IMG/VR virus record: IMGVR_UViG_2778261064_000003
Span: 1-41,713 of that record
DNA length: 41,713 nt
Source: a virus
Lineage: Duplodnaviria; Heunggongvirae; Uroviricota; Caudoviricetes
Reading direction: 5' to 3' (one strand)
This document shows positions 3,373 through 27,188 of this stretch, piece by piece (position 1 is the stretch's first letter; each line of letters starts with the position of its first letter). The position numbers and the translations under genes were made by a program. The notes under the pieces were generated by a model. It did not search any database, was not told the DNA's origin, and saw nothing but the letters and a program-made list of their open reading frames with translations.

Positions 3373-4433
3373 GTTGCCACCGCCTTTGTTTTCTTCGTCT
3401 TCGCTTTCATTTCCGGCATATCCAGTGATTCAGGCGGAACCAGCGCCAGAACCGTCATCCGCCCCTGTGCACCATCCGTCCAGGTCACCCCGGATATCAG
3501 CCAGGTGGTTTTCAGGTTCTGAATGCTGTCGTCGATATCGACAAGGCGGTTGGTCTGCCACAGCGGACCGCTGTCGCCCTGTTCGCGCCAGCCTGCCACC
3601 GTGATTTCCGTCGTGCGGGCCTCTCCCAGCATCCGGGCTTTGTACCATTCCCCGCGAATGCTGGCACCGCCCACGGTCAGACTGTCTTCATTGACCAGAA
3701 TGCGCGGGCGGTAACGGTTAATTTCCGGGTCTTCGGTGATGTACTGGCGACCGCCCACCATCGTGGCAGGCTGGCTGTCCCACAGTTTGCCACCGGCACT
3801 GGTGGTGCCCTTGATGATGTACTGACTGTTACGCTCCCGCCAGCTGAAGCGCCCACGGGCGGCGAGGATATTTTTTCCCAGCACCAGTGACACGCCCGCG
3901 CGAACGGAAGAAGCGCGGGTGATAATCAGATTACCTGCGCCGTCAGACGTCAGCAGAACACCGCGCTGTTTTGCCAGCCGGTCGAGCAGTTCAAAACCCG
4001 TTTCACCCTGTTCCAGAACAACGGACGCAAACGCCTCCCCGGTCGGGGTTTCCGTGATGACGGTTATTCCGAACGGGCGGCAGACATCCGCCGCCACCTG
4101 TTCAAGCCGCACGCCTTTCCATTTCCCGGACGAATGCACCACAGAGCAGTCCACCAGGTCGCCGGTTTTGTCGCGCCCCATGACACGAATTTCCACATTG
4201 TCCGCGTCATAGCTGGGAATAAAATCATCGATATACCCCGTCAGCACGGTATCCGCACCCAGCCTGACCGTACAGGGTTGCCCCTCACGAATCACGCGCG
4301 GTGCCGCCGCTGACCAGCGTGTTGTCACACTGAGATCAAACTCACCGGCAATCGCCTTCAGGGAACGGCTGACGGACATTTCCGTCCAGCCTTCCCACAG
4401 TTTGCCGTCAACGGTAAGAATCACGGATCCCAT
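3363..4433 (-). CDS. Baseplate hub / tail protein (Mu P, gp44-like)
   Basis: 356-aa ORF following the N-like gene in Mu order. Confidence 0.6.
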   Translation of the reverse strand: MGSVILTVDGKLWEGWTEMSVSRSLKAIAGEFDLSVTTRWSAAAPRVIREGQPCTVRLGADTVLTGYIDDFIPSYDADNVEIRVMGRDKTGDLVDCSVVHSSGKWKGVRLEQVAADVCRPFGITVITETPTGEAFASVVLEQGETGFELLDRLAKQRGVLLTSDGAGNLIITRASSVRAGVSLVLGKNILAARGRFSWRERNSQYIIKGTTSAGGKLWDSQPATMVGGRQYITEDPEINRYRPRILVNEDSLTVGGASIRGEWYKARMLGEARTTEITVAGWREQGDSGPLWQTNRLVDIDDSIQNLKTTWLISGVTWTDGAQGRMTVLALVPPESLDMPEMKAKTKKTKAVATWD

Positions 4434-5707
4434 CAGTCGGTAATCTCCACAGGTTGCGTCGGCAGAATGAATGACGGATGGCGCAGGCGGTTACGCTGCA
4501 CGATTTCATCCCGTCGGCTTGTATCCCCATGCTCGCGCCATGCCAGCAATGCGGCAGATGTGGTTGTGGTCAGCGTCACCTGCCGGGTTTCCGGCAGACG
4601 GGCGGCACGCTCGCGGGCATCCGTAATCACGGCCTGCCGTAAATCGCGCAGCGTTCGCCACAATGCCCGCTGGTTATTTTCCACCGCTGCCACCGCCTGC
4701 TCATGCAGTTCAGCCGCCAGCGCGTCACCGGCAGATAATGCCGCATCACTGGTATCGAACGTCATCGAGGCCACGGCATTTGCCTGTCCCAGCAGGGTTT
4801 CCAGCACAACCACCTGGCGGAAGTCGTCAATGTTCTTCTGCAGGCTGTCAGATACCGGCTGATAATCCGGTGACAGCCCGATAGCAAAGCCAGGTTCGCC
4901 GTCTGCCACGCTGCCTGGCTTCACGGTGATATCTTCCGGCAGTGCGCCGGTGGCAACCTGTCGGGCGCGTTCTCCGGCCCACTGGTTGCGTAATGTCGTG
5001 TAAACCGCCAGTGCTTCGGGTGGTTCCGTCACCAGAACAACCACGCCGTCGATGAACGAGGACAACTCACTGACCAGACGTCCCGGCGTGGCAATAATGG
5101 TTCCGGCCATCTCCTTAAAATGGTTCAGCCTGTCCATCCACTGATTCAGTGCTGCCGGTAACGTGGGCAGGTTAGCCACAAGGTTTTCCATATCGGCCAG
5201 AAAGCTGTCGGCCATATCACCCAGCCCGTCAGGTACACTGAACCAGTCGCCAGCATCAATGGCCGCTTTTACCGCATCAATGCCTGTCAGCACCTCCTGC
5301 TGCGTGTTATCCGCCGCAGACGGGAACAGGCGCTCGCCTGCCTCAAACACTTCAAAGGTGACATATGCAATGCCATCTTCCTCCGTGCTGAGGCGATGGG
5401 TGACCTTGCCAACCTGTACGGTCTGTATCCCGAACCACGGGTGGATAAGCTCGCCGGGGCCGGGGGTATTGAGCGCGTCTAAAAGGGCGTTTAAATCATC
5501 CTGGAAGTTTTTACCTGGCAGCTTTGCGTTAATCTGCTGTTGCCCCGGAACGGCCCCGTTATCATCCGTCCAGGCGGTTTCGCGCCGGGGATACGCGCGG
5601 GGAATGGCACGACGGCCACCGGTGCCTTCCGTATCCACCAGAAAGAAGGGGACGCCGCGAAACGAGGCATCGCGCAGCCCGTCCCATTTGCCTTTGCTCG
5701 TTGTCAT
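4433..5707 (-). CDS. DNA circularization protein N-like tail protein (Mu gp43-like)
   Basis: 424-aa ORF immediately downstream of the tape measure gene, as in Mu. Confidence 0.6.
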   Translation of the reverse strand: MTTSKGKWDGLRDASFRGVPFFLVDTEGTGGRRAIPRAYPRRETAWTDDNGAVPGQQQINAKLPGKNFQDDLNALLDALNTPGPGELIHPWFGIQTVQVGKVTHRLSTEEDGIAYVTFEVFEAGERLFPSAADNTQQEVLTGIDAVKAAIDAGDWFSVPDGLGDMADSFLADMENLVANLPTLPAALNQWMDRLNHFKEMAGTIIATPGRLVSELSSFIDGVVVLVTEPPEALAVYTTLRNQWAGERARQVATGALPEDITVKPGSVADGEPGFAIGLSPDYQPVSDSLQKNIDDFRQVVVLETLLGQANAVASMTFDTSDAALSAGDALAAELHEQAVAAVENNQRALWRTLRDLRQAVITDARERAARLPETRQVTLTTTTSAALLAWREHGDTSRRDEIVQRNRLRHPSFILPTQPVEITD

Positions 5708-7572
5708 TACCCTTGCTCCACGCTGGTGACGCCAGCCTGCGCACTGAGTCTGACGCCGGGTTGATCCACTCTGACACTTTTCACGCGGGCATCACCTTCC
5801 ACCACCACACGGATTTCCCCCTGCAATTGCTGCGAAAGGAAAGGATAATTCTGTGTGGGTTGCATACCTGCCCACGGTCGCGGGTCAGCAATGTTCTTGT
5901 CACCCAGCGAGTTGAACCAGTCCGTTACCTTACGCCAGACGGACTCGAGCGCTTTCTGGTTGTCCTGACCTTGTTGCGCGAACTCACGTTCCCACTGGCT
6001 GGCGCTGGCATCACCGGCAACGGATTTAGTGAGACTGTCAACCTCACCCGGCAGGGCGTATTGTGTGGTCAGAAAATCGTAAAACTCCAGAGCACCGGCA
6101 ATGATGCCAGCGCCTTTACCTGCCTTTCCTCCACGGTTACCCGGCCCCCGAGGATTGCGGGGATTGCGCGATGAATCCGGTGTATCCGGCAGACCGCCGG
6201 TATTACCATTCATCCCGCCACTGCCCATATTGACCACATAAACCGGCATCACGCCGGAGCCGAAAACATCCGTAATGCCGCCGGGTATTCCTTTGCCTTT
6301 CCCTTTGGGATTCATGATGTCGTGGAGGGTTTTACCTAACTGGTACGTTTTTCTGATGGCGATAATGCCGCCCACAGCAATCGCCATATATTTACCGACC
6401 TGCAACCAGTTCTGGACGGTGTTCTGGTCCACGCTGTTGATGGCATCAGCCAGGTCCTGAACGGGTTTTGCCAGTTGATGGTGGGAGAATTTTTTCCAGC
6501 TGGTTTCCAGCGCCTGCATGGCCGACGTAAAATCCTGTGCAGCATATGCGGCATCCTTCATGATGCCTTTTCCATCACCTGTAACCTTCATATAACGTTG
6601 CAGGTTTTCTGCGCCTTTGCCTGAGGTTACCGCTTTGATTAACATTGTTGCATCATCAAGAAACCCGGCTTCATCCAGCCGTTGGGATTGTATTTCTGTA
6701 CCTTTACTTCCGGAGCGTGCGGCAATCTCCTGAAGAAGAAGGGGCAATGAACGCATATTTCCTTCGTTATCGAATACGTTAATGCCATTGTGTTTAAGAA
6801 CCTTTACGGTTCCTGTTTTTTGCAAATCTTTTATAAGGTTTTCTACTACTGTAGCCGCAGTATCCCGATCTCCGGTTGCATCAATCGCAGATTCAAGCAC
6901 AACCCCAACATCCCTGACACCCTGCACACCACGTCCGCCCGCAGCGGAATACAGCGACATCGCACGGGTTGCTTTTTCTGCGATGTCTTTCAGTTCATAG
7001 GCACCTTCTTTTCCCAGCAGGTTCAGGGTATCCATTGCCTTTAAGGCATCGTTTTCATCCTTAATCCCGAACTTCGTAAACTGAGAAAACAGCGAGCCGA
7101 TGGCTTCCCCTGAACTTCCGGAAGCGGCGATGGATGCCGCCATCATCTCCTTGTTTTTGAAACCAAAATTAATCTCACCCGTCACGGTGCCAACTTTTTC
7201 CACCGCGCTTATCAGTTCACTGTCATCAACCTTAAATTTGATGGCGGCGTCCTGAATACCATTCAGCATCTGTGCCATTTCTTCGCGCGTCTTTTCTGCG
7301 GAAATACCAATACGGGTCATCCGGCGATCCACCTGCGCAAACTCACGCATCATGGCGCTACCCGCAAAACCGGCAATCATCGCCGTGTAGCGGTTACCCA
7401 GCACATCGAGGCCACGTGTGGCAGATTCCGTAGTGGCTTTAACAAGGCTCATTGCCTTCTGATGATTACGCGCGAACTGCGACATATTTGCGCCGTACTG
7501 CCGGGCTTTGGCGGTCAGGTTCCCGGCAAGGTTGATCATGATTTCCGTACTGAGACGGTTACCTGTTGCCAT
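5707..7572 (-). CDS. Tail tape measure protein
   Basis: 621-aa ORF, Gly-rich and helical, located between tail chaperone and baseplate genes. Confidence 0.8.
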   Translation of the reverse strand: MATGNRLSTEIMINLAGNLTAKARQYGANMSQFARNHQKAMSLVKATTESATRGLDVLGNRYTAMIAGFAGSAMMREFAQVDRRMTRIGISAEKTREEMAQMLNGIQDAAIKFKVDDSELISAVEKVGTVTGEINFGFKNKEMMAASIAASGSSGEAIGSLFSQFTKFGIKDENDALKAMDTLNLLGKEGAYELKDIAEKATRAMSLYSAAGGRGVQGVRDVGVVLESAIDATGDRDTAATVVENLIKDLQKTGTVKVLKHNGINVFDNEGNMRSLPLLLQEIAARSGSKGTEIQSQRLDEAGFLDDATMLIKAVTSGKGAENLQRYMKVTGDGKGIMKDAAYAAQDFTSAMQALETSWKKFSHHQLAKPVQDLADAINSVDQNTVQNWLQVGKYMAIAVGGIIAIRKTYQLGKTLHDIMNPKGKGKGIPGGITDVFGSGVMPVYVVNMGSGGMNGNTGGLPDTPDSSRNPRNPRGPGNRGGKAGKGAGIIAGALEFYDFLTTQYALPGEVDSLTKSVAGDASASQWEREFAQQGQDNQKALESVWRKVTDWFNSLGDKNIADPRPWAGMQPTQNYPFLSQQLQGEIRVVVEGDARVKSVRVDQPGVRLSAQAGVTSVEQG

Positions 7573-22170: not shown

Positions 22171-22718
22171 ACAGCAATTCTCCCGCTGTTTCGTGCGCGG
22201 GCATATGCACTGGTCAGTGCATCATATCCGCGTAGTTCCCGCCCGGATGGGCTTGCAGGTAACGGCACACCATGTCGGGCAAAGGCTTCCCGGATGCAGC
22301 GCATGTGCCACTGCTTGAGCGTTTTGAGCACAATCTGTAACGATTCCCCGTGACACCAGGCCAGCGTGGAAACACCCTGACCGCCATTACGTCTGGCCGT
22401 CAGGCGTGCAACGTATTTGTCCAGCGCGACATCGCTGCCATCAGCGACAAAGCCATCCTGAAACATCTGCTGCCAGATTTTGTAAATCTTCTCGCGTGGT
22501 GTGACATGCCCCTTAAAGCGACGGCGGGGATGTTTTTTCTGCTTCTTAAAACCGCGCTCTTTCATGGCATCGAGCACCAGTTCCAGTTGTGCGACGGTCA
22601 GCTCGCGGCAACTGGTCTTGCCTGTGCACTGCACCAGAAAGGCGCGGTAAGTGTCATCGTCGAGTTGTAGATCACGACGGGCGACATGAATTAATTTAAT
22701 CAGGGATGTGCGATTCAT
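22167..22718 (-). CDS. GemA-like early protein (Mu gp16, DUF1018-like)
   Basis: Position immediately upstream of the Mor-like gene; start set at MNRTSLIKL (ATG 22718) with a GGAGGT RBS. Confidence 0.5.
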   Translation of the reverse strand: MNRTSLIKLIHVARRDLQLDDDTYRAFLVQCTGKTSCRELTVAQLELVLDAMKERGFKKQKKHPRRRFKGHVTPREKIYKIWQQMFQDGFVADGSDVALDKYVARLTARRNGGQGVSTLAWCHGESLQIVLKTLKQWHMRCIREAFARHGVPLPASPSGRELRGYDALTSAYARARNSGRIAV

Positions 22719-22791
22719 TATCGTACCTCCGGAAAAGGGGGCGGTGCGGCAACACCGCCAGAATCCACTCACTAAACAGAGGAAGCTTTTT

Positions 22792-23058
22792 ATGAAAAAC
22801 AGTGAACAACCTTATGATGTTGCAGGGTATACCATTGCCTCAAGGTTGCTGATACTCCTTGTCAGAAAGGGGCTGATTACCGCAGAGGAAGGAAAAACAA
22901 TCCTCAAATCCGCTGCAGTCGTAGCTGCAGAGGCTCCGGTATTGAGAACAACGAATGATTCCGCCCTGCAAATATCGCAGCTAATCACTGAAACCATCAG
23001 TTTGTTAGACCAAGATCCTGATGAATATCAAAAGCCTCAGCCATCTGAGCATCCGTAA
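22792..23058 (+). CDS. Hypothetical 88-aa protein encoded on the opposite strand within the early region
   Basis: ATG at 22792 preceded by GAGGAAG RBS; convergently overlaps minus-strand ORF 22997..23311 by 62 nt. Confidence 0.45.
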   Translation: MKNSEQPYDVAGYTIASRLLILLVRKGLITAEEGKTILKSAAVVAAEAPVLRTTNDSALQISQLITETISLLDQDPDEYQKPQPSEHP

Positions 23059-23311: not shown

Positions 23312-23486
23312 TTCTTAATACCTCTTCGCAATAAAAGATTTCACTGGGATAACGTTTTTGTATGCGCTCCATCACCTGCATACATGCCTGTTCTGTGGGC
23401 CAGATTTTTTCCGTTACCGGAATGGCATCGCAGGCATCATTCCCGCAGGTGCCAACCAGCAGGACAAAGCCAGTTGACTTAATCAT
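23304..23486 (-). CDS. Hypothetical small protein (possible lipoprotein-like N-terminus)
   Basis: About 60 aa from MIKSTGFVLLVGTC...; start overlaps the upstream stop by 8 nt. Confidence 0.4.
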   Translation of the reverse strand: MIKSTGFVLLVGTCGNDACDAIPVTEKIWPTEQACMQVMERIQKRYPSEIFYCEEVLRNE

Positions 23487-24021
23487 GTTCACTGACTTCC
23501 TGTGTTGCTGCCGGAGCTGGTGAATAATCAAGAATGAGATAGCGCATGACGTGGCCGGTGATATTCCAGCCACTGGAACCACAAATAAAACGTCCCAGCC
23601 GGATATCGATATACGCCATCACAAAACGGGGCATCCCCTGTTTGCACATCTCGTCATCCACTTCAGCAACGATGTAAACCGACTCGCAGGTCAGTACGCC
23701 TGTCGCAAATTCTTTTACCAGTGCCGGAATGGCATTGCCTTCCAGCCAGGGCAAAGAGCGGCGGAACGCGCACCATTGAGCATCATCAACATCGGGGTGC
23801 TCCGTTGTTGCGTTTCGTATTACTGGCGGCGTCGGACGAGGGCGCGGAACGTCATAAAATCCGTTGCATTCAGTGAGAACTCCGGCATCAACCGCATCAC
23901 GCAGGAAATACACCATTGAGGAAGGTGGCATCTTCATTTTTTCAGCCAGAACGCCACAGGTCAGACGGCCGTAAACCTGTAATAATGTGCTGACGCCGCT
24001 CAGAACTTTTGCATTAATCAT
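23479..24021 (-). CDS. Hypothetical protein
   Basis: 180-aa ORF downstream of gam. Confidence 0.5.
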   Translation of the reverse strand: MINAKVLSGVSTLLQVYGRLTCGVLAEKMKMPPSSMVYFLRDAVDAGVLTECNGFYDVPRPRPTPPVIRNATTEHPDVDDAQWCAFRRSLPWLEGNAIPALVKEFATGVLTCESVYIVAEVDDEMCKQGMPRFVMAYIDIRLGRFICGSSGWNITGHVMRYLILDYSPAPAATQEVSEHD

Positions 24022-24119
24022 TTTTTATTTCCCGTATATCAGATTCAGGCGCGAGCAATCCCCTGACGCATCGCGCCATAATTAAAAGAAAGTGAACTAA
24101 TTAAATATTTGTGGTGGTA

Positions 24120-24644
24120 TTAAATACCGGCTTCCTGCTCAAATGGAATAATAGAAAAATCCTCAATGCCTGATTTAACTGTAATTCCGGCAACACCTGC
24201 GACCGCTTTCGGTTCCAGTAAAATCGCTTCCTTGTTGATTTCCTGTTTCGTGCGAATAAAGCGTTGCAGGCCAAGACGCTCCAGCGTTTCCATCACCGCA
24301 TCCACACCGCGAATACTTACTGATGGTGGGCGCTGACGCCATGACACATCGCCGGTTACCAGGTTGGCCGTCTTCACCTTGCCGCCGTTCGTCAGTTCGT
24401 CACGGTTCGCTTCACACCACCCCTGAACGCCTTTTGAAAGGGTTTCAATACGGGTTTTAAGCGGCGCAATCCGTGAGGCGTATTTCTCCGTAATTTCAGC
24501 AATAGCGTCATTCATTTCCGTTTCAAGTCGTACCGCTTCGCGTTGCAGGTCACCAATCCAGCGAATATCACACACCACGGCATCCCGGGATTGAGGAACA
24601 TAAGCTGCTGCGGCATTCCTGATTCGTTTTGCTGGTTTAGCCAT
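24120..24644 (-). CDS. gam: Host-nuclease inhibitor protein Gam (Mu Gam-like, DNA-end binding)
   Basis: 174-aa translation (MAKPAKRIRNAAAAYVPQSRDAV...GVDAVMETLERLGLQRFIRTKQEINKEAILLEPKAV...) closely matches my recollection of Mu Gam. Confidence 0.85.
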   Translation of the reverse strand: MAKPAKRIRNAAAAYVPQSRDAVVCDIRWIGDLQREAVRLETEMNDAIAEITEKYASRIAPLKTRIETLSKGVQGWCEANRDELTNGGKVKTANLVTGDVSWRQRPPSVSIRGVDAVMETLERLGLQRFIRTKQEINKEAILLEPKAVAGVAGITVKSGIEDFSIIPFEQEAGI

Positions 24645-24664
24645 ATAAATAAAGCTCCTGTTAA

Positions 24665-24952
24665 TTAATATTCGCTGTATACAATGCTGGATACAGCACG
24701 ATTGCTTAATTCCATCTTTTGGGCTATCACATGAATAGCCAACCCTTCTTTATAAAGTTCACGACACAAATATTTGTCGCGCTCACTGATTTTGTATACA
24801 CACAACGATATTCCGTACCTTCTGGCATGCGCACGCAGGGCGCTTGTGGCAACATTCAGTTTTTTCGCCATTTCTTCAACAGTCATTTTCCCGACACTGG
24901 CTTCGATAAATTCTCGGTCTTCACGTGACCATCTTTTGCGAGGGGTTATCAT
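24665..24952 (-). CDS. Hypothetical helix-turn-helix protein
   Basis: 95 aa with two HTH-like segments. Confidence 0.5.
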   Translation of the reverse strand: MITPRKRWSREDREFIEASVGKMTVEEMAKKLNVATSALRAHARRYGISLCVYKISERDKYLCRELYKEGLAIHVIAQKMELSNRAVSSIVYSEY

Positions 24953-24968
24953 GATGATGCCCTCCTTA

Positions 24969-25388
24969 TCAGTGCACCGGGAGTTCGAATCGTGCCGACA
25001 GCATATGCCGCACAGATAACTGAACCGCTTTCAGGGCAAGGGAAGAATACGTCCCCTGCGTCCAGCCTTTCGCCATTTGCCGGTAATCGCGCCAGATGTT
25101 CTTCCACTGCTCCCGTGCGTCCGGGTCTGACACGCTGATGTATTCGCGGTCCATGACGTATTCCCATAAATCCACATTGAAGGCATTGCCAAACGTAATG
25201 GCGCGGAATATCGCTTCCCCGCAATAACGCGCACAAATGCTGTAATGGTCGAATGCAATCAGGTAAGTCTTTTCGCCATATCCCTCAACTTCGCGCGCGC
25301 AAATAAATTCGCGCAAGTCTCCACCATTGCTATTACGCTCTTTAATCCGAATTAATGCCTGAATTTCGTTTCTGATTTTGGCGTTCAT
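24969..25388 (-). CDS. Hypothetical protein
   Basis: 139-aa ORF in the early region. Confidence 0.5.
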   Translation of the reverse strand: MNAKIRNEIQALIRIKERNSNGGDLREFICAREVEGYGEKTYLIAFDHYSICARYCGEAIFRAITFGNAFNVDLWEYVMDREYISVSDPDAREQWKNIWRDYRQMAKGWTQGTYSSLALKAVQLSVRHMLSARFELPVH

Positions 25389-25408
25389 TGTCAGCGTTCC
25401 TTTATGAA

Positions 25409-25678
25409 TTAATGTCTGGCAGCACCTGGATCAAACGGGAACAACTCACCTTTTGCATTCAGTCCTTTGGCTCGTGCTGATTTCAGTAGCTCTCTGGATG
25501 CCTTTTCAATGATTTCCGGTCCCATGCTCTCAACAATGCACGCAAGCGCGTCATGCGGTCCGGTGTTTTCCTCCGGGGAAAGTTCAACCGCCCGCACGGT
25601 CATGCTTATGCATGAAGCATCTTTTCCCTGATATTCCATACTTTCCGGGCTGTTAAATTCAAAGATCACTTTTGCCAT
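25409..25678 (-). CDS. Hypothetical mildly acidic protein
   Basis: 89-aa ORF, Glu-rich. Confidence 0.45.
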   Translation of the reverse strand: MAKVIFEFNSPESMEYQGKDASCISMTVRAVELSPEENTGPHDALACIVESMGPEIIEKASRELLKSARAKGLNAKGELFPFDPGAARH

Positions 25679-25689
25679 TTTGTTTCTCC

Positions 25690-25944
25690 TTATTGATTCT
25701 GAATAACTGCGCTGACCTTTATTTTCGCGCCTTCTACCTGTTTAAAGAAAACACCACTACACCACGGACAACATGTGAAGGAGTCCCATACTTCATTTTC
25801 GGGGGAACTTTGCGTCATAAGTTGTTTGCCACATCCTGGGCATTTATATGTCGTCAAAGGCACTCCGTGGCGCTGACAATGTTTAACCCACTCAATATAT
25901 TTTCCAGACCTGATACTCATCGTTATCTCCAGATAATCTGACAA
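25690..25944 (-). CDS. Hypothetical zinc-ribbon protein
   Basis: CPGCG...CCPWCSG cysteine pairs. Confidence 0.5.
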
Positions 25945-26150
25945 CCATTAAGACGGGCCGTCCATACTGAACGGGCAACCCCGGATTTATGCTCCATAAT
26001 CCTGACAGCGTTTCTGACCAGCTCTGGTGGCGGGCAGGTGATTTCAAGCACCGGGCGGGCCACGCCCAGCCATGATTCGTTGACGTGGCTGCCGCGCTCC
26101 TGTAACCAGGTCTTTACTTCCGTTGCCATTTTGATATTCCGTGACATCAT
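25923..26150 (-). CDS. Hypothetical protein at the Mu kil position
   Basis: 75-aa ORF immediately downstream of B; positional inference only. Confidence 0.4.
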
Positions 26151-26162
26151 GGTTTATGCCCC

Positions 26163-27116
26163 TTACTGCCAGTTCAGCAACTTAGGGTTGCTGTAAGCCT
26201 CCTTAAAAGCCGCTTTTATGTGACTTTTATTCAGGGATGAACCAGCACCTTTCGCCGCCAGCCACGCATGATTCAGTGTGTGAGTTAATACACGCAATCC
26301 CCCGGGCTTTTCGGCAACCCTCATCAGCAGATCCAGCTCATCTTCCTGTGTTACTCCCCATGCTTTGGCTACAGCCATCACATCAGTCTTTTTCACTTTG
26401 CGCAGTTGTTTTGTCATGGCAAAACGGCTGAACAGACGAGCCAGTTCATCAGTCCCACGACGGGTGGCATCCGCCATCTGTTTCGGGTTGCCAATTAAAA
26501 CCATCCCCACGCCAGTAGCATCCTGAATGGCGCGTAATTGCTCCAGACCATCCACACTTAAGTGGTCAGCTTCATCAATAATCAGCAGGGGGTTAACACG
26601 ACCACTGGTTTCTTTACCACCGCCCAGTTTTCTGCGAATGGCGCGGGTTATATTCCCCTTATTTCTTCCCGGATTATTAATTTCCAGCGCATATGCTATT
26701 TCAAGGAGGCATTCAGTTACGCTCGAATGTGCCGGAGCAAGCGTCACCATCCAGGCATTAGCTGTCTTGCGACAATATTCCCGTGCAGCAAAAGTTTTGC
26801 CGACACCCGGTACGCCAACAACAACACTGATAATCCCGAGTGAGCGCACTGTTTTAAACAGCTCATGCAAATCACAAAATGTCTGGGTCTTCACAACACC
26901 AGGGGCACCTGACAAATTCTGTCCCTTAAGCCAGACCTGATACCATTTCTGCAATTTGTCATGCATACCTTCGACATTACCTTTGTACTCTCCTTTACGC
27001 AGAGCCGAGAGTGTTGCCGGAGACATTCCTGCTTCATCAGCAATATCTTCCTGGGACTTGTCGCCCTCGTTAATCAACGTGTTAATAGTGTTGAAAACAT
27101 CATCAATATCAGTCAT
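26163..27116 (-). CDS. DNA transposition ATPase (MuB-like target DNA activator)
   Basis: 317 aa with Walker A motif GVPGVGKT; directly downstream of the transposase. Confidence 0.85.
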   Translation of the reverse strand: MTDIDDVFNTINTLINEGDKSQEDIADEAGMSPATLSALRKGEYKGNVEGMHDKLQKWYQVWLKGQNLSGAPGVVKTQTFCDLHELFKTVRSLGIISVVVGVPGVGKTFAAREYCRKTANAWMVTLAPAHSSVTECLLEIAYALEINNPGRNKGNITRAIRRKLGGGKETSGRVNPLLIIDEADHLSVDGLEQLRAIQDATGVGMVLIGNPKQMADATRRGTDELARLFSRFAMTKQLRKVKKTDVMAVAKAWGVTQEDELDLLMRVAEKPGGLRVLTHTLNHAWLAAKGAGSSLNKSHIKAAFKEAYSNPKLLNWQ

Positions 27117-27160
27117 AGTATTTCCTCCATCATTACAGATTTACTTTGTTTCCTTGTTTA

Positions 27161-27188
27161 ACAGTCCGTTACAGCGGACTGTTTTTTT
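27161..27188 (+). terminator. Terminator-like hairpin ACAGTCCG-TTACAG-CGGACTGT followed by a T7 run (plus-strand sense) in the A-B intergenic region
   Basis: Seen directly; the U-tract is on the plus strand, antisense to A and B. Confidence 0.4.

Follow-up and report, generated by a model that had tools for sequence, protein, structure and literature searches.

A known Mu-type early gene block between B and gam carries a discrete recombination cassette in its third gene

Five small genes between the transposition gene B and gam of a Mu-type prophage had been described as uncharacterised and as the most likely place for undescribed anti-defence or host-takeover functions. This raises the question of whether these genes are new and, if they are not, what their relatives indicate about their role. 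The DNA analysed here, referred to as the window, is the whole 41,713-nt stretch of the IMG/VR virus record IMGVR_UViG_2778261064_000003. In our comparison the five genes very probably represent the catalogued Mu early genes kil, E5, E6-slot, E7 and E8. The block is already known and constitutes an ordinary early segment of a Mu-type (Muvirus) prophage. What our analysis adds concerns its third gene, ORF3, which by its sequence is placed in a discrete recombination cassette and in a superfamily other than that of Gnarl2, the product of the Mu gene at the same position.

The early genes of the prophage are encoded on the minus strand of the window and the repressor gene on the plus strand (Table 1). 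The five tightly packed ORFs of the original prediction were located as described, with intergenic gaps from B to gam of 12 (B stop to ORF1 start), 2, 11, 20, 16, and 20 nt. The given sizes of 75, 89, 139, and 95 aa were correct, but that of 84 aa was not. It resulted from an upstream TTG at 25944 overlapping kil. The supported start of ORF2 is the ATG at 25920, preceded by a GGAG Shine-Dalgarno (SD) sequence and located 2 nt behind the kil stop, which yields 76 aa and equals the length of Mu gp6. With this correction, every one of the five ORFs starts with ATG behind a GGAG/AGGAG-type SD sequence. A scan of the coding strand of the block for promoters and terminators gave no signal above shuffled expectation, and an Rfam search of the block gave no match.

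Table 1. Position of the early genes in the window and of the corresponding blocks in the Mu and D108 records.
Feature	Position	Strand	Remarks
repressor	29607-30242	+	
ner	29281-29553	-	
A (transposition gene)	27191-29278	-	
B (transposition ATPase, MuB-type)	26163-27116	-	Pfam Phage-MuB_C E=2.5e-23, also AAA_22; upstream neighbour of block, in one operon with it
kil / ORF1 (Mu gp5 orthologue)	25923-26150	-	75 aa, pI 10.3, basic; first gene after B
ORF2 (gp6/E5 orthologue)	25690-25920	-	76 aa, predicted zinc ribbon
ORF3 (gp7/E6 slot occupant, D108-type allele)	25409-25678	-	89 aa, acidic, pI 5.1
exchangeable cassette body within gp7 slot	25424-25656	-	DNA identity drop
ORF4 (gp8/E7 orthologue)	24969-25388	-	139 aa, narrow ORFan family
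ORF5 (gp9/E8 orthologue)	24665-24952	-	95 aa, basic, predicted tandem helix-turn-helix
gam	24120-24644	-	Pfam Phage_Mu_Gam E=6e-42; downstream neighbour of block, in one operon with it
gp11 homologue	23479-24021	-	
Mu block (NC_000929)	4315-5781		
D108 block (NC_013594)	4260-5741		

The ratios of dN/dS against the Mu/D108 orthologues were 0.11-0.23 for the five genes and thus similar to those of gam (0.10-0.13), which identifies the five ORFs as real genes under purifying selection. The alternative that some of them are chance open frames in an AT-richer spacer draws on their shortness, on the lack of an above-threshold Pfam family for any of them, and on overlapping ORFs of like length on the opposite strand. 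However, purifying selection acts in the called frames, each start combines an ATG with an SD sequence, the PHROG matches span the full length, and the frames are kept at 38-46% identity in Kluyvera-type and other elements. Chance frames are therefore practically excluded; effectively, this reading has already been refuted. Opposite-strand ORFs, such as one of 89 aa at 25672-25941 (+), were set aside, since selection and SD sequences support the minus-strand frames.

A blastn search of positions 24100-27150 against phage records gave a single collinear match that runs from gam to the stop codon of B (24100-26164), with identities of 81.7% to D108, 84.4% to Mu, and 86.5% to SfMu. The matching phage region is annotated as gam, gp9, gp8, gp7, gp6, and kil. 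Exactly five genes extend from B to gam in both the Mu and the D108 records: kil (Mup05), gp6 (formerly E5), gp7 (E6), gp8 (E7), and gp9 (E8). Compared one to one, the five ORFs share 57-89% aa identity with their Mu/D108 counterparts. Gene order and strand are common to all three blocks, sizes are alike, and the third gene of the window is of the D108 gp7 type. The genes of the block have been part of the Mu sequence since about 1990. Moreover, all five ORFs matched existing PHROG families (E=1e-25 to 6e-82). This contradicts the earlier view that none of the proteins fits a known family. All five proteins are orthologous to named Mu/D108 early genes, and an established function is available for part of them. 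The description as uncharacterised does not apply to Kil, which has a published phenotype, or to the Mu gene of the third slot, gnarl2, but is appropriate for gp6, gp8, and gp9. Searches with the five proteins gave nothing significant in PDB and nothing above the cut-offs of Pfam, NCBIfam, and PADLOC; PADLOC returned one sub-significant match, for ORF5 (E=0.0019).

The block differs from those of Mu and D108 in a few respects. The C-terminus of gp8 and the N-terminus of gp9 diverge (24983-24944), and ORF5 comprises 95 aa as compared to 99 aa in Mu/D108. The flanking proteins Gam and gp11 are 92% and 84% identical to those of Mu, whereas B shares just 41% identity with Mu B and belongs to another lineage. 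Thus, the transposition module next to the block is not that of Mu.

Its position, after A and B and before gam, is in the semi-essential early region, as had been predicted, and at the start of that region; in Mu this proximal part carries accessory host-interaction genes. The semi-essential early region of Mu is driven by the promoter Pe, forms part of a long early transcript, and comprises functions described as 'largely unknown' (PMC3820752; also PMC8705779, PMC4553209). By analogy with Mu, the five genes kil-E5-E6-E7-E8 would be co-transcribed from an early promoter Pe upstream of ner. The repressor would keep them silent or nearly so in the lysogen, and expression would set in within minutes of induction or infection. 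Transcription from Pe in this prophage is predicted from Mu biology, and a point against it is that the A/B module belongs to a lineage other than that of Mu.

ORF1 matched PHROG 2743 'Kil' over residues 1-75 of the 75-position profile (E=1.9e-39) and shares 85% aa identity with both Mu Kil and D108 Kil. A C-terminal motif, RSVW...GC.IIWR, is invariant down to 39% identity, including Kluyvera-type elements, and the dN/dS of kil is 0.11. Expression of Mu kil kills the host and turns E. coli cells spherical (Waggoner 1989, as cited in PMC3961180). According to the statements on Kil in the citing article, such spheres point to inhibition of elongation rather than of septation (PMC3961180). Because Mu Kil yields spheres, the PHROG label 'septation inhibition' is loose for Kil of the Mu type. 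Lambda Kil and KilR of the Rac prophage likewise are small, early-expressed, host-toxic prophage peptides that disturb cell morphogenesis. In contrast to Mu Kil, which generates spherical cells, these block FtsZ and cause filamentation (PMC3961180), and they share no sequence similarity with Mu Kil. Judged by orthology, the sphere-forming, host-toxic phenotype is very likely to be conserved in ORF1, which would then affect cell elongation or shape and not septation. Such a transfer of a phenotype through Mu orthology holds only for Kil. Within the literature collection searched, we found no newer work on the target of Mu Kil, nor on gp6, gp8, or gp9.

The zinc-ribbon protein mentioned in the original prediction is ORF2, which matched PHROG 3786 (E=5.5e-39) and is 79% identical to Mu gp6. 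Four cysteines, C27, C30, C51, and C54, form a CxxC...CxxC pattern that is kept in at least 95% of 14 unique gp6 sequences, down to 38% identity. The FmdB-type zinc ribbon model TIGR02605 was matched with E=7.9e-4 and 19.4 bits, below its cut-off of 31.3 bits. Like the FmdB/CxxC_CxxC_SSSS proteins of this model, gp6 is shorter than 80 aa and has two CxxC knuckles about 20 residues apart; the resemblance is limited to this motif. It is quite probable from the conserved cysteines that gp6 binds one Zn via such a ribbon, and gp6 is predicted to be a small adaptor binding protein or nucleic acid.

For gp9 (ORF5), orthology is clear from 89% identity to the Mu protein. It matched PHROG 323, 'transcriptional regulator, D5-like', with E=4.4e-26, covering only positions 145-244 of the 319-position profile. 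Sub-threshold matches to HTH_Tnp_1, sigma-70 region 4, and Cbp1-type multi-HTH models of Pfam/NCBIfam extend over both halves of the protein. Two tandem HTH units of about 40 aa are predicted, the second of which (LCRELYKEGL...KMELS.R.V) is nearly invariant. The numerous sub-threshold HTH matches and the PHROG 323 match agree with the small HTH protein that had been noticed in the block. gp9 is a likely DNA-binding protein of the tandem-HTH type and may serve as a regulator or DNA-associated factor.

ORF4 matched PHROG 3690 (E=5.9e-82) and is 81% identical to Mu gp8 over residues 1-129 and about 76% over the full length, with about 10 differing aa at the C-terminus. Pfam, NCBIfam, PADLOC, and PDB gave no match for gp8. 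An exhaustive HMMER search with a gp8 profile yielded just 11 matches, mostly fragments, among 1.84 billion representative proteins, so that there is no remote family for gp8 to draw on. By these searches gp8 classifies as a narrow enterobacterial ORFan, and in our best explanation it would be conserved and globular. Profile searches and structure prediction had been suggested for the block in advance; the former placed all five proteins in PHROGs, and the latter was of use for ORF3 (mean pLDDT 76, see below) but not for gp8. The AF2 model of gp8, built with 13 homologues, was discarded at a mean pLDDT of 46, which leaves the role of gp8 without structural support.

We compared 53 loci that were anchored on gam and in which B could be recognised. 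One of them lacks any ORF in the B-gam interval. Among the other 52, kil comes first of the recognisable genes downstream of B in 49; in the remaining three it follows an unclassified 49-aa ORF (two loci) or a gp8-like gene (L084). About one third of the loci are devoid of gp6, which shortens the B-gam interval from about 1510 to about 1290 nt. A minimal form, kil-gp7-gp9, lacks both gp6 and gp8 and spans about 870 nt from B to gam. More distant Kluyvera-type elements carry just kil and one or two small genes. The third slot is occupied by differing alleles across the surveyed loci. The presence or absence of gp6 and gp8 together with a near-constant kil characterises the block as accessory and modular, its first gene being the constant one. 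Such an architecture is compatible with a role in host interaction and does not point to any specific one.

The mildly acidic 89-aa protein listed earlier (pI 5.1) is ORF3, which matched PHROG 2230 over positions 1-89 of 89 (E=1.4e-25) and is 57% identical to D108 gp7, a member of the same family. Mu gp7 belongs to PHROG 10252. BLASTP returned no alignment of ORF3 with Mu gp7 (NP_050611.1), and the global identity of the two is 22%. At the DNA level, the identity of Mu and D108 is 97-100% throughout the block and falls to 30-45% only in the interval 25656-25424; between the window and D108 it is 85-93% in the flanks and 55-75% in the cassette. One junction is located about 22 nt inside the 5'-end of the gene and the other about 15 nt ahead of the stop. 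All proteins of the slot begin with MAKVI(I/F)E and measure 78-89 aa, and most of them end in His. These shared termini coincide exactly with the conserved DNA on either side of the cassette and are therefore explained by recombination. Clustered at 65% identity, the 65 unique full-length slot proteins fall into five classes; at 35% they form two superclasses, of 55 D-type and 10 Mu/Gnarl2-type sequences. The third slot is a discrete recombination cassette exchanged between two sequence-unrelated superfamilies. The D-type family comprises 65 clusters at 90% identity, all from Enterobacterales (E. coli, Salmonella, Yersinia, Cronobacter, Kluyvera, and Edwardsiella). The dN/dS of the slot is 0.13, with saturated dS.

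The Mu occupant of this slot, E6/Mup07 (NP_050611.1), was recently described as orf63, 'gnarl2' (Silas et al., Nat Commun 2025, PMC12373910; preprint 10.1101/2023.04.06.535777). Expression of Gnarl2 shifted the O-antigen bands of ECOR1 and ECOR22 downwards and increased T5 infection 10^5-10^6-fold; its target is unknown according to the authors (PMC12373910). A gp7 of the D108 type was not found in the searchable files of their library (PMC12373910).

One may ask whether ORF3 and Gnarl2 are true homologues that have diverged widely, with the same fold and ancestry and the same alteration of the O-antigen, perhaps with another serotype specificity for ORF3. By placement and size the two are alike. 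ORF3 occupies the same variable slot in the gp6-gp8 interval, its 89 aa fall within the range of 40-90 aa and nearly equal the 87 aa of Gnarl2, and both proteins are acidic. They also share about the first 7 codons (MAKVI.E) and the last one (His). A full-length hhalign comparison was collinear end to end (P=2.7e-5, probability 49-58%), and Mu gp7 matched PHROG 2230, the family of ORF3, with E=0.009. However, this similarity did not withstand removal of the termini, which coincide with the conserved DNA flanks of the cassette. After trimming of the first 8 and last 2 residues, the profile-profile score, at 9.4, lay at the level obtained with shuffled columns (10.3 +/- 2.2). Smith-Waterman z values (mean 1.47, maximum 4.2) equally resembled those of a reversed-sequence control (1.18 and 4.3). 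Together with the negative BLASTP result, a profile search with the 40-sequence family drew in no Mu-type protein. In a BFVD fold search, in which the presence of a Mu gp7 model was not established, one marginal match and no strong second one were obtained. We consider a diverged Gnarl2 unlikely and unsupported, since the trimmed, shuffled, and reversed controls erased the full-length hhalign signal. In the protein body no homology between ORF3 and Gnarl2 is detectable, and as far as their sequences tell, ORF3 is an alternative occupant of the Gnarl2 slot without demonstrable membership in the Gnarl2 family.

An AF2 model of ORF3 from the 40-sequence alignment exceeded a pLDDT of 90 for residues 31-60. 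It places residues 3-9 and 25-31 in a beta-hairpin and residues 41-51 and 53-70 in two helices, with a disordered tail; a search for structural neighbours with this model gave none of significance. Since no homology is left once the cassette flanks are removed, the idea that ORF3 acts on the O-antigen derives from position, size, and charge alone. Reasoning from the slot, an effect of ORF3 specifically on O-antigen or LPS is possible but rather doubtful, whereas an action on some strain-variable host target has a somewhat better than even chance. Speculatively, ORF3 may be a small non-enzymatic protein that, like Gnarl2, binds a host protein of envelope biosynthesis or another strain-variable host protein. 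A more general and quite tentative proposal, which we regard as improbable, is that the D108-type family (PHROG 2230) represents a second, structurally distinct group of small stand-alone effectors of host surface or host immunity that alternates with Gnarl2. If so, the slot-3 allele would help to set which host serotypes or strains the prophage modifies. As the alternative occupant of the slot, Gnarl2, alters the O-antigen, the D108-type family including ORF3 is a specific and cheap candidate for an O-antigen assay.

We also considered the suggestion that the block encodes as yet undescribed proteins that act alongside Gam as inhibitors of intracellular defence (restriction, CRISPR, abortive infection, or others). 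An early-operon position adjoining gam, which encodes a RecBCD antagonist, small proteins of narrow, lineage-specific families, and a turnover of slot-3 alleles combined with presence or absence of gp6 and gp8, as is typical of arms-race loci, are in line with it. Independently, Silas et al. chose the region as a 'highly variable region' and source of accessory genes (PMC12373910). Their 200-gene library includes Mu gp6 (UDP0137, 'Zn finger'), gp8 (UDP0119), gp13, and gp15 (PMC12373910). Against the suggestion, gp6 and gp8 were screened and not named as hits; the text of either paper mentions no phenotype for orf119 (gp8) or orf137 (gp6) (PMC12373910; preprint). A strong and general effect of gp6 and gp8 in counter-defence or toxicity is therefore less likely in the hosts screened. 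The sole screened member with a phenotype, Mu gp7, targets a surface barrier and not an intracellular system. Furthermore, none of the models for defence or anti-defence in PADLOC, Pfam, or NCBIfam was matched, and the divergence of the slot is old and purifying, without visible positive selection. Undescribed inhibitors of intracellular defence are thus improbable in our assessment, and we retain the assignment of the block to the known Mu early genes.

As a discovery the block matters little, because it consists of known Mu genes that are contained in PHROGs and recur in E. coli. Its residual value is that of a compact and well-delimited set of early accessory genes in which phenotypes are available only for Kil and the Mu allele of the third slot. 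In this slot, two unrelated protein families have replaced each other by a clean natural exchange of cassettes, and one of the two was lately shown to alter the O-antigen. Matches to the block were present in 92 of 5426 complete E. coli genomes (about 1.7%). A prophage of E. coli 06-00048 is 95.6% identical across the whole 3 kb, and ORF3-ORF5, gam, and gp11 recur with 100% identity on one IMG/VR contig (L032).

Upstream of the small genes between B and gam, a mosaic junction falls exactly on the B/kil boundary. The B protein of the window shares only 41% identity with Mu B, whereas the adjoining region from kil to gam is 79-92% identical to Mu, with the exception of the swapped cassette in the gp7 slot, which shows 57% identity to D108. 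Among the related gam-anchored loci the same kil-gam block is paired with at least four B lineages, whose identities to Mu B are about 100%, 90%, 75-79%, and 41-49%. Coordinates are compiled in the table below.

Features of the early region and of related loci
Feature	Location	Strand
ORF containing a homologue of Mu gp15 (MKNSEQPYDVAGYTIAS...)	window 22708-23058	+
gp11 homologue	window 23479-24021	-
Gap between gam and gp11	window 24022-24119	
Side of the mosaic junction with kil-gam	window 24100-26150	
gp8/gp9 divergence spot	window 24944-24983	
B side of the mosaic junction	window 26150-27116	
Inverted repeat between A and B	window 27160-27183	+
Extra gam-gp11 gene (example)	L055:1158-1706	
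gp8-like gene preceding kil	L084:3647-4199	

A second local divergence spot was found within the block, where DNA identity to Mu and D108 drops to about 0.45, whereas these two phages share 97% identity with one another in the matching region. The differences affect approximately the final 10 residues of gp8 and the N-terminal residues of gp9 (ORF5), which comprises 95 instead of 99 amino acids. In L084, a more distant Mu-type element, the gp8-like gene (33% identity) is located ahead of kil rather than behind the gp7 slot, and before gam L083 and L084 retain only kil and a gp9-like gene. Therefore, the gene order of the block is not fixed.

The interval between gam and gp11 is another variable accessory slot adjoining the kil-gp9 block. 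Several related prophages (L038, L039, L046, L048, L054, L055, L057, L062, and L066) carry an extra gene of approximately 182-201 codons at this position, which matched PHROG 2260 and gave no match in a Pfam search. This gene is absent from Mu and from the window, where just 98 nt separate gam from gp11.

Frameshifted forms of gp8 and of the proteins from the gp7 slot also occur in public databases (P0010, P0012, P0026, P0036, P0078, P0080, and P0082). Their N-terminal half is conserved and their C-terminal half is out of frame, which suggests that these genes are decaying in some resident prophages.

The PHROG description of ORF1, 'Kil protein for bacterial septation inhibition', lumps together unrelated Kil proteins. 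The phenotype published for Mu Kil is spherical cells, not filaments (PMC3961180). The gp15 homologue is encoded opposite to the early operon, as is Mu gp15 (NP_050619.1), which is UDP0085, another entry of the accessory-gene library of Silas et al. (PMC12373910). Finally, between A and B, which are 74 nt apart, lies a perfect inverted repeat of 10 bp with a T-run after it on the + strand, the antisense strand of the early operon; when read on the coding strand, it would not function as an intrinsic terminator.
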